Part shown: piece after piece, positions 6,994 through 53,133 of the stretch
How positions within the stretch are numbered: position 1 is the first letter of the stretch
How the letters are laid out: each line of letters begins with the position of its first letter
IMG/VR virus record: IMGVR_UViG_3300025158_000018
Length of the DNA: 64,000 nt
Direction: 5' to 3' (one strand)
Origin: a virus
Translations under genes and position numbers: made by a program
Notes under the pieces: model-generated
The model's input: the letters and a program-made list of their open reading frames with translations, nothing else
What the model was told of the DNA's origin: nothing
The model's database searches: none

Positions 6994-7249
6994 GCGTTCA
7001 TATTCTATCGTAAAAGTATAATAATATCCGTCATAATCATCAACAACGACAACAGATAGAAAAGCAGACTCCCCATAATTTTCAATCAGATCATCTATAT
7101 TTTTTCTTAATTCCGAAAGAGTATTATACTCAATCAGACTCGAACAAATGTCCTTTTTTCCTTAACGATGATCTTTTTCATTTATAGGACTCCGGTTTGA
7201 TTTAACGCTAATGTACCAAAAGAACGATATGATGTCAAGTTTTAAATTT

Positions 7250-7335
7250 GGTGCCCCCGGTAGGACTCGAACCTACACACTGTTTCCAGCAAGAGCTTTT
7301 GAGACTCCCGTGTCTACCAATTCCACCACAAGGGC
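7250..7335 (-). tRNA. tRNA-Leu (CAA)
   Basis: acceptor gcccttg/cgggggc (2 GU), loop ctCAAaa, long variable arm, T-loop TTCGAGT, CCA. Confidence 0.75.
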
Positions 7336-7604
7336 AATGTTCGTGAGTTCCGCAGCTAGTATCCCCACTAGGACTAATTTCGCTTTCAACTCTAGCACTG
7401 TCGTTTTTTACCATCAAACGATTAGGTCATGTTAAACAAGGCAACACATGAATTGCACCTTTATTCGACAGCTTTTTCTTTCTTCGAATGTACCCGGCCT
7501 AGTCCTGTACACTCAAGAGTAGCTTACACTCTTTCCAGTCTTCTGGCGACTGGTCTGCCAAATCACCACACCTAAAATATAAGTGCTGAGCTAGGTTTTT
7601 AATT

Positions 7605-7689
7605 TGGTGCCCCCGGTAGGACTCGAACCTACACGCCTCTCGGCAATAGCTTCTAAGGCTATCGTGTCTACCAATTCCACCACAGGGGC
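7605..7689 (-). tRNA. tRNA-Leu (TAG)
   Basis: anticodon stem atagc/gctat, loop ctTAGaa, long variable arm, T-loop TTCGAGT, CCA. Confidence 0.8.
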
Positions 7690-9808: not shown

Positions 9809-9837
9809 GATATTTCTCCTTATTTACAGGTCCCCTT

Positions 9838-10126
9838 GACTTCTCCTCTTCCTTTAGGAAGAGGATTCTTGTTTCACAGTCCACTACATTGTTCTCTACA
9901 AGAACTTTAGATTTATGTCGGACTCCGCAAGCTATCCCCGTATGCCCCACGGTTCTTTTTTCTACCACTTTTAAGGCAGATGTTTTTTTACAATATTATT
10001 CAGCACTTGGTTCTCGATACTGAATATTTTATATTGTACCACTATCTAGTGTTTATGCCAAGTGGTGAAATTTTTAGAATTTGTCCCCTCCCTGAAGGAA
10101 GGGGTCTTCTTTGTTTTCTTGATAAA
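9838..10126. repeat. copy A of ~300-bp inverted repeat (partner at 49681..49986)
   Basis: reverse complement aligns at roughly 90-95% identity by eye to 49681..49986; includes hairpin cctcttcc-ttta-ggaagagg and 3' end of CDS 10074..10715. Confidence 0.75.
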
Positions 10127-10715
10127 CCATTTTGATTTTCTTCTTCAGTTCTGGAATGGTAATGCCCCGTTCGGCTCCTTTAAAGAAGAACCCGCGAAAG
10201 TCAGATTCGACAAACGATCCAATAGGTTTGACCGAATCTTCAACAACTACCCTACCATTAGCTACAGTGAACAACAGGATCGGCTTGGCGTCTTCTTCGC
10301 AGGTCTCCCCGTCAAACAGTTGGCAACGGAGATTTAGGAAAGGAAAAGCTTCAGCGATCAGTCCCCACTCGGCGGCAACAGCTTCTACATCAGGCCATTT
10401 TCCGATGTTCTTGTTGTTACAACCAATTGTACCATCCCAATCACACCAACCATTCGGACCGCCTATCCAACAACTCATGATACGTTCATTTGTCAGATAG
10501 TAGAGGTCGAGAACCTTGTAGGTTTCTCGATTCTTCTCGGATGCTTCGATCCATGAAATGCCATCATCACTTTCTTTTACAAGGGGGGAACAGACTCTGA
10601 ACTTGTTCCGAAAACTCTTGATCGTTACAACTCCATCGAAAGTTAGGAAGATTGGAATCGGTACGCAGAAGGATTTCCGCAGCCTGTTCTTCAGTAACGT
10701 TGTCACCCTGAACAA
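10074..10715 (-). CDS. hypothetical protein
   Basis: ORF; C-terminus lies inside repeat copy A. Confidence 0.5.
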   Translation of the reverse strand: MFRVTTLLKNRLRKSFCVPIPIFLTFDGVVTIKSFRNKFRVCSPLVKESDDGISWIEASEKNRETYKVLDLYYLTNERIMSCWIGGPNGWCDWDGTIGCNNKNIGKWPDVEAVAAEWGLIAEAFPFLNLRCQLFDGETCEEDAKPILLFTVANGRVVVEDSVKPIGSFVESDFRGFFFKGAERGITIPELKKKIKMVYQENKEDPFLQGGDKF

Positions 10716-10769
10716 TCATTCCGGGCCATTTGTTGGTAATCTCACGGGTATTCTTGAATGTCACGTTGT

Positions 10770-11069
10770 TCATATTTGTTCCTCATTATTCTCGAAAAAA
10801 GGCTTCTCCTTATCAATCATATCACCAATCAAAGAAATTTTTTCCTGATCAGAGTATGATTGTTCTGACAAAATTTGTTTTACGTTTTTCAGAACAGAGT
10901 TATATTGAGCCATTGTATCCTTGAGAGCAGCATTAAACAAAATCTCGGAAATCAATGAATTTAAAGTCATTCCCCTTCTGTCTGCTTCTTTCGCCAGCGT
11001 CAGAACGTCTTTGTCCTCAAGTTCAACTTCAATGTTGACATACCCGTCCGATTCATTTTGTATGCCCAT
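10770..11069 (-). CDS. ribbon-helix-helix (CopG/Arc-like) DNA-binding protein, putative
   Basis: N-terminal beta-strand plus helices VELEDKDVLTLAKEADRRGMTLNSLISEIL. Confidence 0.4.
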   Translation of the reverse strand: MGIQNESDGYVNIEVELEDKDVLTLAKEADRRGMTLNSLISEILFNAALKDTMAQYNSVLKNVKQILSEQSYSDQEKISLIGDMIDKEKPFFENNEEQI

Positions 11070-44034: not shown

Positions 44035-45804
44035 TCAAACCAAACGTCTTAAAGTTCTTTGATCTGGTGGTTGACCGGTAATATTAAAGAGAATTTGTCC
44101 ATTTTCAACGCTGCCGGTACCGATTGAATTTATTTCAAAGTCAGATTTTATAGCAAACTGTCCACCATCTACCGAATATATTTTCAAATCATCTAATGGG
44201 CCTGACAACATCCGCCATAGTTTGTTTCCTTCGGTATCGTGCAAAAGCCAATACAATATGGCATGGCCTTTTGAGTCTACAGAAATTGTCATTCCTTCGT
44301 TGTTACCAATTCCATAGTATCCGTTCATTGAATGTTCCGAAGCTTGTGATATTCTCTGTAACGGCACGGCTATTGGGCCATATCCTTCTATTTCCCCCCG
44401 CATTATGCCGGTAGTGTCATTGTGCCAATAAACCATGATTTCCCCCAATTCCGATATTTCTCCCTCGGGGTTAGCAGTAACAATCGTACCCTTGGCGACA
44501 GTCCCTTCTACATCACAAACAGCCCAAAACCACTGGTGTTGGCTATGCTCCCGATCTTTCCACGTTAGCCAGTGCAAAACCACGCGATTGTCGTCGGTGA
44601 ACCCAACATGCACCCCTTGCACCGACCATTGTTTGTTGCCCCACTGTCCGGCCAAGTTTTTAGTTATTGGCGATGAATCCCCAATCCACCATATAGGTTC
44701 TGTTATCGTTGGTGTGGGTGCGGTACTGGTTTTATTAAAGACCCGCACTTTTGCGGAATATTTGTTAAGTTTTTCTACTCGCACCACAATGTCATCGAAT
44801 TCGTATTGCGTTTCAGTTTCAATATACCGCAACAGCCTAGTAATTACCCACCGCTTGGTACCCTCGAACCACGGTACATGGACGGCAACAACTCCATTGT
44901 AGAAACTAACACATACTGATTTGTTCGTGCTGTCTCCTGTGTTGCACATAACAGCTTTATTCTCGCCGGTGCGTAAGGACAAAGGATTTCTGGAACCTTG
45001 GACCAACCACGTTTCAACAGACTCTCCGGATTCAAGCCCAATGATGTTGTTGTCTTCTATCAACCCGGCTTCGATTAAGTGTGGGGTATTAAAATCATAT
45101 ACGACCCCCGGTAGTCGGTCGAGCCCCATCCACGTGGAATTTTCTGCATATTCGCGTTGTCCTTGGCCAGAATGACTAACTCCTAATAAGGAATGTCCTA
45201 GGGTTTCGTGTATATGCGTACTTTTTTTGTACACACACCACGACTTAGACCAGCTTTTCGGACCATTTAAATCGGCACGACCACACAAGCTAGAATTAGA
45301 AATACCGGAAGATGTTATACACCCGTAATGCGTGTCGCCGAGTCTTTTATTGGGATACGCCTGATCTGACATATACCGAAGCATAGGCCAATCTACACCA
45401 AAGTAGCCATCACTGGTTATAATCGTTGGAAAGTTTACCGGATATACCTCAATATCCACTCGACCCCCAGCTATTCTGAGGTATTCATTCTTGATATCTT
45501 TTGCAGTGCGTTTGACATAATCGTCGCTTTCAAGATCTGGAAAAACTTCCGGCGACACCCCGTACCCAAATGTCAGTCCGACTCGTCGAACATCATGCTC
45601 TGGTAGTGCGGTCAAATCATATTGCCAATCTTCCAAATTTAAGAGACCAGCAGATTCAGAAAAAAGAGCCTCTATCGTTTTACCCATAGGGGGATTTTTG
45701 GCCATAGAATGTGGTGTTAGTTCTAGTCCCAGTGGATATTCATCAGTTATGATGATAGGAACATGACGGTCGTTTAACGTTATATGTCCGCGCAATACTA
45801 GCAT
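44035..45804 (-). CDS. large paralog 2 (589 aa) with conserved HETLGHSLLGVSHSG metal-binding-like motif
   Basis: global similarity to 45878..47638, incl. shared C-terminus PD.R.LRRL. Confidence 0.5.
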   Translation of the reverse strand: MLVLRGHITLNDRHVPIIITDEYPLGLELTPHSMAKNPPMGKTIEALFSESAGLLNLEDWQYDLTALPEHDVRRVGLTFGYGVSPEVFPDLESDDYVKRTAKDIKNEYLRIAGGRVDIEVYPVNFPTIITSDGYFGVDWPMLRYMSDQAYPNKRLGDTHYGCITSSGISNSSLCGRADLNGPKSWSKSWCVYKKSTHIHETLGHSLLGVSHSGQGQREYAENSTWMGLDRLPGVVYDFNTPHLIEAGLIEDNNIIGLESGESVETWLVQGSRNPLSLRTGENKAVMCNTGDSTNKSVCVSFYNGVVAVHVPWFEGTKRWVITRLLRYIETETQYEFDDIVVRVEKLNKYSAKVRVFNKTSTAPTPTITEPIWWIGDSSPITKNLAGQWGNKQWSVQGVHVGFTDDNRVVLHWLTWKDREHSQHQWFWAVCDVEGTVAKGTIVTANPEGEISELGEIMVYWHNDTTGIMRGEIEGYGPIAVPLQRISQASEHSMNGYYGIGNNEGMTISVDSKGHAILYWLLHDTEGNKLWRMLSGPLDDLKIYSVDGGQFAIKSDFEINSIGTGSVENGQILFNITGQPPDQRTLRRLV

Positions 45805-45877: not shown

Positions 45878-47638
45878 TTAGGCTAGTCTTCGTAAACTAC
45901 GTTCATCAGGTTCCTTTCCGTCTAGATTAAAAGTTACCGTGTTGTTTGACACAGTCGCAGTACCGATTTTCTCTACAGTAAAATCGGACTTCACAGAAAA
46001 CTGACCACCTTCAACTTTATAAATGTCTAATTCACCACCATTTCCTTGCAGCATGTGCCATAATTTGTCGTTATTGTTGTGTCCTAACCAATAACATAAC
46101 ATGCGTCCGTTAGAACCGGTCGATATAGTTAGACCCTCGCCATTACCTATTCCATAATATCCTGCGATGTATGATGGATTAGCAGCAAACACACGAGTAA
46201 ACGGCATGGCGAATCTCAGTCCATGATTGAATGTTCCTCTTGCAATTCCTTGTTCTTCAGAATACCAAAAAACTTCTATATCTCCCACTTCTTCCGGTCT
46301 TCCATACTTATCAGCCGTTATTAACGTACCTTGGGCTAATCTTCCGTCGTTGGAAATATCGCATACTGCCCAATACCAAGCATGTGAATCAATTTCGTAT
46401 CTGTCCCATGTTAACCAATGTAAAACCAATTTCCCACTATCATTAAATCCGACATGCACCCCCTGCACAGACCATTTTCTGTTCCCCCACTGTCCCCTTG
46501 CCCAATCCCCTATTTGCGGAGAAGTGGCTGGGTCGGGTCTCCCCCTTTCGGGGATTCTTGCGGTTTCGGGTTCAGTCGTGGTTTGGTTGAACACTTGTAC
46601 TCTTGCACAATCGTTTTTCAATTCTAGTACTCTGACCCTGACCCCAGAAAATGTTCCCTCCAAATTCGCAGCCCTAAAAGTTCGTAAAAGTCCAGATCGT
46701 AGAAAATTAGTGGTCATCCTGTGTCCGGGCTCATGGACACGCACAGTTCCATTAAAAAAAGAAACCATCAAGCGGCGAGTGAGTCCAGTGTTGGCCACAT
46801 GACATAAAATCGCCTTGTTTTCTCCCAATTTTAAGCTGAGAGGGTCGTCGGAGCCCTGCACCAAATAAGTATCTATTGATTCTCCCGGAACCAAGTATCT
46901 TACGTTGTTTTCTTCTATCAAACCCCCATGGTACAAATGTGGAGTATTAAAATCAGCAAATATTCTATCACCGCCGTTTCCCATTATAGTATCACCCTCA
47001 CCGTATGGGTTTCCACCGTTCCCAGTGCCGGAATGTTCTACCGCCATGATAGAATGACCCACGGTCTCATGAAAATGCGTATTTTTTGCTCCAACACAAG
47101 TAGATTTGCTCCACGAAAGCGTTCCCCCCAAATCTGCTCGACCACACACCCCTACGGTGCTGGACGATGTTTGTGAAATGGCACACAGGTGTGTAAAACT
47201 AGGGGCGTCCGGATTGGCCAAACGGCAGGCAGCGCCTAGGTCTGACCACTTAACGGTATAAAAGTCTGAGGCCGCGCCCACGTAAGATGCCGGATACGCA
47301 TGTACCTCCCAGCGATCCCTCCCCACACGGCGGGCTTCATTTTCTAATTGTTTCGCCCAACGCGTTGCAGCCTCTACTGCATTAGAATTATTGTCTTCTT
47401 CAGTTGAAACCCCAAATCCAACTGCAATGTGTATTTGCCTGATCTCGTAATCCGGCAAATCCGTTAGATCATACTGCCAATCCAGAACCACTCCGTCGAT
47501 TATGAGAGCTTCAATGGTTTTTCCCAATTCGGGCAAAGGCTCTACTGGCTCTATAGATATTTGTTGTCCATTGATCGTGTGAAACTGAAAGTTTCCGGAT
47601 TCAGTGTCTACTAAAACTTTTCCTCTGTAGGCATTCAT
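45878..47638 (-). CDS. large paralog 1 (586 aa) with HETVGHSIMAVEHSG motif
   Basis: paralog of 44035..45804; TATAAATA late motif ~25 nt upstream. Confidence 0.5.
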   Translation of the reverse strand: MNAYRGKVLVDTESGNFQFHTINGQQISIEPVEPLPELGKTIEALIIDGVVLDWQYDLTDLPDYEIRQIHIAVGFGVSTEEDNNSNAVEAATRWAKQLENEARRVGRDRWEVHAYPASYVGAASDFYTVKWSDLGAACRLANPDAPSFTHLCAISQTSSSTVGVCGRADLGGTLSWSKSTCVGAKNTHFHETVGHSIMAVEHSGTGNGGNPYGEGDTIMGNGGDRIFADFNTPHLYHGGLIEENNVRYLVPGESIDTYLVQGSDDPLSLKLGENKAILCHVANTGLTRRLMVSFFNGTVRVHEPGHRMTTNFLRSGLLRTFRAANLEGTFSGVRVRVLELKNDCARVQVFNQTTTEPETARIPERGRPDPATSPQIGDWARGQWGNRKWSVQGVHVGFNDSGKLVLHWLTWDRYEIDSHAWYWAVCDISNDGRLAQGTLITADKYGRPEEVGDIEVFWYSEEQGIARGTFNHGLRFAMPFTRVFAANPSYIAGYYGIGNGEGLTISTGSNGRMLCYWLGHNNNDKLWHMLQGNGGELDIYKVEGGQFSVKSDFTVEKIGTATVSNNTVTFNLDGKEPDERSLRRLA

Positions 47639-49652: not shown

Positions 49653-49680
49653 GAATAACGAATTATTTTATATGGGTTAT

Positions 49681-49986
49681 TTATCAAGAAAGCAAAGAAG
49701 ACCCCCTTCCTTCAGGGAGGGGACAAACTCTAAGAACATTTAGCAAAAAACATTCACCACTTGACATTTTCACTAAATGCGATTACAATATTTCAGTATC
49801 GAGAACCAAGTGCTGAATAATATTGTAAATATCTACCTTAAAAGTGGTAGAAAAAGAACCGTAGGGCATACGGGAATAGCTTGTGGAGTCCGACATAAAT
49901 CTAAAGTTCTTGTAGAGAACAATGTAGTGGACTATGAAACAAGAATCCTCTTCCTAAAGGAAGAGGGGAAGCCAAAAACCCAAAAC
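49681..49986. repeat. copy B of ~300-bp inverted repeat (partner 9838..10126)
   Basis: aligns to reverse complement of copy A; carries frameshifted relic of the C-terminal codons of CDS 10074..10715. Confidence 0.75.
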
Positions 49987-50035
49987 AAAACAACATCGAA
50001 GAAAAGTGAAAGGGTGGCCTCAGCCACCCCATTTT

Positions 50036-51938: not shown

Positions 51939-52338
51939 TTGATCATTATATTGATATGAGACGGTATTTGCAATACTACTGGCAACAATTAAAATAGAGA
52001 AGGGGACAAGTTAGCTTGTCCCCTTCTGAGCTTTGGTTATACGGATATTGCTCTAACCCGCATTCGATCAAGCTGCTAGGGCGAAGCCGTTAGCGTTGCT
52101 GTCGAAGTCAGCGTCATTTGCTGCATTTATTTTACTATCATTTTTGCGTCTTTGTTGACGATTCTCCTCGATTCCTAATAACGCCCGGTCGATTTCCAGT
52201 TTCGCCCCCTCCAAAAGCGTCCACCATTTCCCGGATTTACCGGGTTTCTGACGCATTACCCAACTCGTCTAAGGCTTTTTTGTTTGCTACGCCGGGAGGA
52301 TGCCCTATCCTTCCTCTGTTGGCACTTGTAGACGCTTT

Positions 52339-52390
52339 TGGAGACGGCGGGAGTCGAACCCGCGTGTCGTTCGCTTTCAGTCTCGTCTCA
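52339..52390 (-). ncRNA. tRNA-like minihelix RNA (acceptor + T-arm only), candidate
   Basis: 6-bp acceptor gagacg/cgtctc contiguous with T-arm gcggg-TTCGACT-cccgc; only 20 nt where D and anticodon arms belong; TATAAATA plus TATAAT 23 nt upstream. Confidence 0.35.
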
Positions 52391-52428
52391 ACGAATGCTT
52401 ATTATTATACCTATTTATATCCAACCCG

Positions 52429-53133
52429 TCAAGTATCTTCGGACAATTTTATTTTAGTCTTTTTCTTAGTAGTTTTTTTTCTTCCACTGGATACCAATTT
52501 ACCATCCAAGGGGGTTTTGGGAGTAATGTCTTCTGTCTCAAGTAAAGAATTCTTCTCTCCAGCTTCTAAACGAGCAATAAGCTGGTCGGAATCCATCCAG
52601 ATATCTCGACCATCAACTACATGGTCGATCTCTTCTTCTGTAAGAATTTTCTCATAAAACTTTCTCATTATTTTTTCCACATAGCCGTTTACATGCTCTA
52701 CTCTCGTTCTAATTTCATGCCCCTTTCCGATTGCAAAACCGCCAGAATAGTTGTGTATCATAAAAGAACAATTCGGATTGATGATATACTCTTCCCCAGA
52801 TAAAAAAATCAAAGTCGCTGCAGAATGGGCATCTCCGTCTAAAGAAGTAATCACTTTGGCTCTAGATGCGACCATAGAGTTCACAATCTGTATTGCCATT
52901 CTAAGAGAACCGCCTTCACTGTTGATGTAAATTACTATAGTATCCTCTTCATTAGCGGTTTTTAACACATTGAGTAGGTCTGAATACTTGTTAATATCAT
53001 CCTCTATCTCTCCAGACAGATAAAAGTGGTGAACATTTAATTGCAAGCTTTGTACGTAATGCTTAATTTTTGGTGGATCAATCCTAAAAGAAGAACCATC
53101 CTCGAATCTTTCGTCAATTGCTTTATTTGACAT
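52429..53133 (-). CDS. ClpP-family (S14) serine protease homolog
   Basis: INSEGGSL and MIHNYSGG blocks; basic C-terminal tail. Confidence 0.65.
   Translation of the reverse strand: MSNKAIDERFEDGSSFRIDPPKIKHYVQSLQLNVHHFYLSGEIEDDINKYSDLLNVLKTANEEDTIVIYINSEGGSLRMAIQIVNSMVASRAKVITSLDGDAHSAATLIFLSGEEYIINPNCSFMIHNYSGGFAIGKGHEIRTRVEHVNGYVEKIMRKFYEKILTEEEIDHVVDGRDIWMDSDQLIARLEAGEKNSLLETEDITPKTPLDGKLVSSGRKKTTKKKTKIKLSEDT

Follow-up and report, generated by a model that had tools for sequence, protein, structure and literature searches.

The repeat pair and its phage setting

The window, that is, the whole 64,000-nt stretch of viral DNA analyzed here (IMG/VR record IMGVR_UViG_3300025158_000018), contains eleven tRNA genes and a permuted tmRNA, and it encodes a primase, a ClpP-like protease, an HD phosphohydrolase, and a SAM-lyase-like protein. 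Neighboring contig regions encode a T4-type rIIB protein, RNA ligases, and an NAD-dependent DNA ligase, and near-identical contigs were found in many metagenomes. The closest cultured relatives of the primase are those of 309–385-kb jumbo phages of Xanthomonas and Stenotrophomonas (35–38% identity), including the Xanthomonas phages Xoo-sp13 and XacN1. The window is part of a large (jumbo) phage, the genome of which is probably longer than 170 kb.

The initial annotation had proposed an inverted repeat pair at this locus, to be checked by comparing the window with itself. This comparison was performed using blastn and detected a single long pair of ~290 bp, in which 9836–10126 on the plus strand aligned with the reverse complement, 49975–49680 (E = 6e-92; 307 alignment columns with five gap openings), confirming the opposite orientation of the two copies (copy A and copy B). 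The coordinates first given were right to within ~10 nt, the end of the partner being at 49975 and not at 49986. An ungapped core of 125 nt (9836–9960 / 49851–49975), identified by a repeat search, is 95% identical. In a global alignment of the copies, 258 of the 307 columns match (84.0%), and the value is 92.1% over the 280 gap-free columns; the identity of 90–95% estimated at first is therefore correct for the aligned bases and for the core but too high once indels are included. No third, weaker copy was found in the 64-kb window by short-word blastn or by an unfiltered covariance-model scan.

The sole other long repeat in the window consists of two tRNA-Leu paralogues, which form a direct repeat (7239–7335 and 7595–7689, 85% identical). 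Two shorter direct matches of ~50 nt, each with partners ~1.85 kb apart (44600–44649 / 46446–46495 and 45046–45097 / 46904–46955), suggest tandem paralogous genes.

Read along the promoter-bearing strand, the repeat has the following order: a TTAT target, 17 nt, a left-end hairpin, a predicted sigma-70 promoter (consensus of both copies, TTGRCA-17-TACAAT), two small leader hairpins, an omegaRNA/reRNA scaffold of ~120 nt, a right-end hairpin, and 9 nt ending in TCAA. Hairpins had been noticed here before and are present, three in each copy, and the 286–291-nt element contains no protein gene. Its features, named according to the reading argued below, are as follows.

9836..10121, minus strand: copy A, the mini-element proper, 286 nt, from its left end at 10121 to its right end at 9836; delimited by five insertion contexts and the reconstruction of the empty site
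10122..10125, minus strand: TTAT target (transposon-adjacent motif) of copy A, lying within GTT TAT, the Val-Tyr codons of the gene that copy A interrupts
10085..10104, minus strand: left-end subterminal hairpin of copy A, CCCCTTCC-TTCA-GGGAGGGG, with one T.G pair
10074..10121, minus strand: tail that the element adds to the interrupted gene, QENKEDPFLQGGDKF and a stop, in place of the native GDL and stop (from the homologue alignment)
10033..10061, minus strand: sigma-70-type promoter of copy A, TTGGCA, 17 nt, TACAAT, with TG before the -10 box; predicted start near 10026
9836..9956, minus strand: omegaRNA (reRNA) scaffold and right end of copy A, matched by covariance model R1; TCAA at 9839–9836
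9845..9864, minus strand: right-end subterminal hairpin of copy A, CCTCTTCC-TAAA-GGAAGAGG
49685..49975, plus strand: copy B, the mini-element proper, 291 nt, from left end to right end; TTAT at 49681–49684
49702..49722, plus strand: left-end hairpin of copy B, with one extra C compared with copy A
49761..49789, plus strand: sigma-70-type promoter of copy B, TTGACA, 17 nt, TACAAT (11 of 12 matches)
49855..49975, plus strand: omegaRNA scaffold and right end of copy B, matched by covariance model R1; terminal CCAA, not TCAA, at 49972–49975
49947–49966, plus strand: right-end hairpin of copy B, within the scaffold/right-end region
50012..50029, no strand assigned: bidirectional terminator hairpin outside the element, 37 nt past the right end of copy B

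Element ends, insertion sites, and the interrupted gene

Using a subfamily-specific 22-mer, we located three additional insertion sites of the same element in JGI metagenomes, all on contigs of another phage, where it is 93% identical to copy A. This sister phage shows scattered tblastx matches to the window, with ~45–55% amino-acid identity where readable. Exact-piece scans of IMG/VR with two subfamily pieces, and of the species genome collection with a 22-mer, gave no matches. The sister-phage copies are as follows.

L040 2622–2829 and L044 297–584: on contigs Ga0100379_10000029 and Ga0210043_1000125
L039 747–1035: on the separate contig Ga0100403_1044465, whose membership in the same genome is assumed

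The five insertion contexts have exact common ends, TTAT/CAAG ... AAGTCAA/ (slashes mark the boundaries; CCAA in copy B), and the sequence outside them is unrelated. In each of the five contexts, the left end is directly preceded by TTAT, and TCAA is found 9 nt after the right hairpin in copy A and the three sister-phage copies, with CCAA in copy B; the right-end consensus of the RNA family described below is GUGUCAA. Imperfect subterminal palindromes at the left and right ends, which are similar to each other, are kept in 5/5 copies. In copy A, the left hairpin lies 17 nt from TTAT and has AAGA at its 5′ foot (10108–10105), and the right hairpin has GAAT at its 5′ foot (9868–9865), with TCAA ending 9 nt 3′ of the foot.

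The insertion of copy A hit a conserved phage gene three codons ahead of the stop. Deletion of 9836–10121 joins ...AAA ATG GTT TAT to GGG GAC CTG TAA, and the reconstructed empty site encodes ...KKKIKMVYGDL-stop, with the ribosome-binding site of the next gene directly after it. The 56 homologues of the interrupted protein that were found end with ...KIKMVYGW, ...MVYGNL, ...MVYGES, and similar residues before the stop (...MVYG-x-x-stop); the Val-Tyr codons are judged from them to be the gene's own, and the present tail QENKEDPFLQGGDKF occurs in none of them. Copy A had been described as including the last codons of CDS 10074..10715, and it does overlap the last 15 codons plus the stop. However, as the reconstructed empty site matches the conserved C-terminus, these codons belong to the element and not to the gene: judged from this reconstruction, they are read from the left end of the element, and the gene was hit by the element rather than copied. 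The insertion lies 3′ of the tetranucleotide without target duplication and is scarless on reconstruction of copy A. The inferred element-free junctions are ...AAAATGGTTTAT/GGGGACCTGTAAATAAGG for copy A and ...TATGGGTTATTTAT/AAACCCAAAACAAAAC for copy B; metagenome contigs of the same phage, which are 99.9–100% identical to the window, contained no empty sites or strain variants.

The initial annotation had read a frameshifted relic of the same codons in copy B, which would imply segmental duplication or recombination of the 3′ end of gene 10074..10715 together with the intergenic region. The overlap of copy A with 15 CDS codons and the one extra base at that place in copy B would fit such an event. 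It is nevertheless refuted by the occurrence of the same ends, including the left end, at three sites in another phage with unrelated flanks, and by the homologues, which lack the tail and end as the empty site predicts, the MVYG-x-x ending being restored by the empty site and absent from the QENKEDPFLQGGDKF tail. The core also belongs to a TnpB-linked RNA family, and we give the duplication of a gene end practically no credence. What had been proposed of a duplicative transposition of a non-coding cassette, and of an RNA element within it, is supported by the present data.

Since copies A and B differ by ~8% plus indels, the insertions are not recent. Copy A resembles the sister-phage copies (93%) more closely than it does copy B, which argues for two separate insertions and not for a functional inverted pair. 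The inverted orientation is simply that of two insertions on opposite strands, and the apparent 'regulatory inverted repeat' is explained as two insertions of a protein-less transposon. Inverted ~290-bp copies with 92% identity in a phage genome could otherwise be taken for a switch, in which homologous or site-specific recombination inverts the 40-kb segment between them, and T4-like phages are highly recombinogenic. We consider such a switch very unlikely, as the repeat is explained without an inversion function, its identity is broken by indels, and eight contigs from different samples, of which six cross copy B and two cross copy A, show the same linear order as the window. None of the eight, which are assemblies that minor isomers would escape, revealed an inversion isomer; segment inversion, as raised by the initial annotation, is possible in principle but found no support among them.

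The gene hit by copy A (window 10074–10773, minus strand) is also frameshifted. Its conserved N-terminus (...NTREITNKWPGMIVQGDNVTEEQAAEILLRTD...) is located in a 68-aa ORF (10773–10567) and the remainder in another frame (ORF 10715–10074), with a G6 run at 10583–10588; the homologues read ...LFPLVKE... across the C6 run, where C5 would be needed. The same split (68 + 134 aa) was called in independent ENA and JGI contigs, and the frameshift may mark a pseudogene, reflect programmed slippage, or stem from an assembly error common to these contigs.

The RNA family of the repeat core

The repeat gave a weak blastn match to two Enterocloster phages, and this match corresponds exactly to the best-conserved 95 nt of the element. 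The Enterocloster phage alignment lies in intergenic DNA and shows invariant linkers, with helices that differ by compensatory changes. In motif scans, the core was present on more than 24 IMG/VR viral contigs and in 69 stretches of bacterial and archaeal genomes, which include those of filamentous cyanobacteria, Poribacteria, Clostridia, and Bathyarchaeia. At least 10 loci have an ORF of 324–408 aa that ends 9–20 nt before the element on the same strand, and Pfam identified these upstream ORFs as TnpB (HTH_OrfB_IS605, OrfB_IS605, and the Cas12f1-like TNB domain; E ~1e-27 to 1e-29). In two of the loci (L010 and L020), a Y1 HUH transposase (HIDHVHIF ... SYFVSTAGN) is encoded directly upstream of tnpB. 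Over viral contigs and genomes, ~36–40 of ~70 assessable copies are tnpB-linked and ~40% are without tnpB; three of the tnpB-less loci (L017, L031, and L106) are independent deletion derivatives consisting of a left end and a right end. The two window copies have likewise lost the gene. The conserved core is the omegaRNA/reRNA scaffold plus the right end of an IS605-type TnpB element.

Both arrangements occur in related phages. In the cultured Enterocloster phage CB473P3 (L010 3101–4192, OP172757.1), the product WAX11681.1, a 'hypothetical protein' by annotation, is a full TnpB and is followed by the omegaRNA, and in the related phage CB457P1 (L009 2974–3092, OP172753.1), an unannotated gap contains the omegaRNA and the right end but no tnpB. 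The 220-kb viral contig IMGVR_UViG_3300037502_002993 (L015, L022, L023, and L029) carries at least six copies of the family on one strand, some with a full tnpB, one with a truncated one, and some with none.

Covariance model R1 was built from 27 members, many of them 9–20 nt downstream of tnpB, with the window sequences left out. It matched copy B with 74.3 bits (E = 1.6e-20) and copy A with 65.5 bits (E = 7.5e-18), in both cases over model positions 1–119 of 119, and the next-best match in the window had 8.8 bits. Covariation was evaluated on 110 matches from all loci, in an alignment that is itself fitted to the model: 95.3% of the cells are paired, compared with 34–47% with slid partners, double-sided changes occur in 16 of the 19 pairs, and none of 500 shuffles reached the observed covariation values. 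The helix of the right-end hairpin is among those that covary across the family. The predicted transcript of copy B alone folds into the consensus (z = -4.65), and a second fold stability value for the element RNA was z = -3.74.

The linkage to tnpB in the relatives places the RNA on the tnpB strand, which is the strand of the window promoters. The long-range helix CUUGU/RCAAG fixes the RNA on the same strand, as it has U.G in most sequences (19 of 27) and switches to U-A, G-C, or C-G elsewhere. An RNA on the window plus strand of copy A was favored at first, based on three T-run terminator-like hairpins and two G.U pairs in hairpin 1, and was rejected due to the tnpB linkage and the U.G pairs (19/27) of the long-range helix on the other strand. 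The sequence TTGACA at the element end, considered as a -35 box, is the reverse complement of the terminal GUGUCAA and is not followed by a -10 box. The long-range helix of copy A contains a C.A mismatch, and copy B ends in CCAA, so one or both copies may be decaying.

Features of the left end also recur in the family. The TTCA loop of the copy A left hairpin is the same, and the stems are similar, in the left ends of L019, L022, and L031, and TTAT is located 16–20 nt 5′ of the left hairpin in the relatives. The target covaries with the four nucleotides at the foot of this hairpin: TTAT is found with AAAA or AAGA, and TTAC with AAAG (TTAT with an AAAA foot in L017, L019, L029, L031, and L106; TTAC with AAAG in L022). 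By blastn, no homology of the left end or the promoter to other family loci was detected.

RAGATH-18, which forms the reRNA core of IS607 TnpB, has been validated as a guide core for TnpB (Ren et al. 2024, PMC11061315), and RAGATH-18 proper has been reported only with IS607 TnpB (PMC11061315). The present family resembles RAGATH-18 (RF03064) in its position downstream of tnpB without overlap and in a guide that would be taken from the flank, and the RAGATH-18 central domain matches in sequence and structure (cCUguGGAG ... GAUGAAgcAGgAA versus CUUGUGGAG ... CGUCGAAACAAGAA). The best relative (L014) scored 30.1 bits over the full RF03064 model and did not reach the gathering score of 44.9. The window copies had no match to RF03064 at E ≤ 10, and no Rfam family was assigned to them at gathering or E ≤ 10; RAGATH-9, PhrS, and the other Rfam matches listed were at chance level. 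Whereas RAGATH-18 is accompanied by a serine recombinase TnpA and an AGGAG/GAGGG TAM, the family described here has a Y1 (HUH) TnpA (L010 and L020), IS608-like hairpins, and TTAT/TTAC targets. Filing it under RF03064 was rejected based on the sub-threshold score and on the presence of Y1 TnpA and TTAT/TTAC targets instead of IS607 features. The family looks like a RAGATH-18-like sister group tied to Y1 TnpA and missed by the RF03064 threshold, and a RAGATH-18-like guide-RNA family is linked to Y1-transposase (IS605-type) elements.

Nature of the element and its possible roles

Based on its ends, its insertion sites, and its RNA, each repeat is in all likelihood a non-autonomous, protein-less miniature transposon of the IS200/IS605 family, PATE-like, with a TnpB-type guide RNA and its own promoter. 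PATEs were first named in Haloquadratum (PMC3119063), and PATEs encoding omegaRNAs that need TnpB in trans have been described (Meers et al. 2023, PMC10055086). The window element shares with the latter the lack of a protein gene, left and right ends with subterminal hairpins, multiple copies, a guide-RNA scaffold at the right end, and the need for TnpA and TnpB in trans. It differs from them in that it resides in jumbo-phage genomes, partly (the sister copies) inside tRNA arrays, has its left end and its scaffold separated by a consensus sigma-70 promoter, and carries a RAGATH-18-like RNA and not one of the Geobacillus ISGst families. The element is therefore of a known selfish kind, and what sets it apart is its presence in phage, the tRNA-array setting, and the built-in promoter. 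IS200/IS605 mini-elements with TnpB guide RNAs circulate between large phages, partly inside tRNA arrays.

The layout of the ends agrees with that of IS608, which together with ISDra2 is the paradigm of the IS200/IS605 family (PMC3201880). In IS608, the target is 19 nt 5′ of the left hairpin and TCAA is 10 nt 3′ of the right hairpin (PMC3201880), versus 17 and 9 nt in the window element. The IS608 target is TTAC and that of the window element TTAT, with insertion 3′ of the tetranucleotide and no target duplication in either. Both have 4-nt DNA guides at the hairpin feet (AAGA left and GAAT right in the window element), and the TTAC/AAAG pair of L022 is the pair of IS608. Unlike IS608 and ISDra2, the window element is only ~290 bp long, has no tnpA or tnpB, and its hairpin sequences are unrelated to theirs.

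A tblastn search found no tnpB or tnpA in the 64-kb window or in ~100 kb of loci of the phage and its sister, so mobility and any RNA-guided activity would need enzymes in trans. The copies may have arrived by single-strand 'peel-and-paste' transposition 3′ of TTAT, catalyzed by a Y1 TnpA that would be supplied in trans by the host, a co-resident element, or another part of the phage genome. The internal promoter would then transcribe the scaffold together with the adjacent flank as guide; for copy A, the putative guide is the flank from 9835 downward (GGGGACCUGUAAAUAAGGAG). The RNA of copy B would be ~235 nt long and end at the terminator 50012–50029, which is likely the 3′ end of the transcript predicted from the copy B promoter, and the RNA of copy A would read on into the 60-aa ORF and HD hydrolase operon. 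TnpB supplied in trans might, with this RNA, cleave the element-free allele (TTAT plus flank), which would favor retention or spread of the element; such use of the RNA has been described for PATEs and IS605 elements (PMC10055086). If solo guides are used in this way by trans-supplied TnpB, phages could gain RNA-guided homing for only 290 bp.

A more far-reaching proposal, which we regard as unlikely, is that jumbo phages harbor the mini-elements as active 'guide-only' parasites. OmegaRNAs made from the element's promoter would have the flanking phage sequence as guides, and the TnpB of the host or of a co-infecting element would cut element-free alleles of related phages at co-infection, resulting in marker exclusion similar to that of homing endonucleases with no nuclease encoded by the phage, and/or the elements would act as mobile early promoters that seed tRNA-gene expression in phage tRNA arrays.

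The promoter also bears on a different account, in which the transposon origin stands but the element has been domesticated as a mobile promoter or leader cassette: selection would keep the sigma-70 promoter, and perhaps a structured leader, for early and tRNA genes, and the omegaRNA would be vestigial. Copy B and sister-phage copies retain the hexamers and the 17-nt spacing, although the spacer sequence of copy B has diverged. The copy A promoter has the same direction as the flanking genes and points into the operon of the 60-aa ORF, HD hydrolase, and SAM-lyase-like protein, with tRNA genes further on. All three sister copies lie in dense tRNA arrays, with right ends 0–24 nt upstream of a same-strand tRNA gene, namely, tRNA-Lys(UUU), tRNA-Ala(UGC), and tRNA-Thr(CGU), and the failure to find TnpB in the window and the examined loci of both phages also fits this account. 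On the other hand, the copy B promoter is antisense to both flanking genes and runs into the terminator after ~235 nt, and the part that is best conserved is the RNA scaffold (95%) and not the promoter. One of the tRNA-adjacent sister copies is without the 76-bp promoter segment, indicating that the promoter is not essential to the element. We consider domestication possible but somewhat doubtful. The tRNA-array placement could reflect insertion preference or promoter exaptation, and because the right ends lie upstream of tRNA genes, the putative 'guide' in the sister phage would be the 5′ end of a tRNA.

T4-type phages have promoter-early stem-loop (PeSL) cassettes, which are short repeated intergenic modules with a sigma-70-type early promoter and stem-loops, scattered in variable regions of large phage genomes. 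A domesticated promoter cassette would be PeSL-like in this sense. No transposon ends or guide-RNA scaffold are known from PeSLs, and the likeness of the window element to them may be purely functional.

The predicted promoter, the stable fold given by both z values, and the terminator after copy B would also suit a stand-alone, trans-acting phage small RNA, descended from an omegaRNA and independent of TnpB. This is highly improbable in our view, since there is no evidence for any target and the transposon ends TTAT and TCAA, which a small RNA would not need, are retained.

Returning to the miniature transposon, its insertion may have had side effects on neighboring genes. Copy A would provide an early-type promoter for the downstream operon, and copy B would fire in the antisense direction and place three terminator-like hairpins between two genes. 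At copy B (window 49653–49700), three terminator-like hairpins lie between a 131-aa gene and a 553-aa gene. The short leftover upstream region of the 553-aa gene contains the motifs GATAAATA and TATAAAAT, which we take to resemble T4-type late promoters. The two-piece (permuted) tmRNA (window 51977–52429, minus strand; tag AANDADFDSNANGFALAA) is ~2 kb from copy B and adjoins the gene for the ClpP-like protease (52429–53133).
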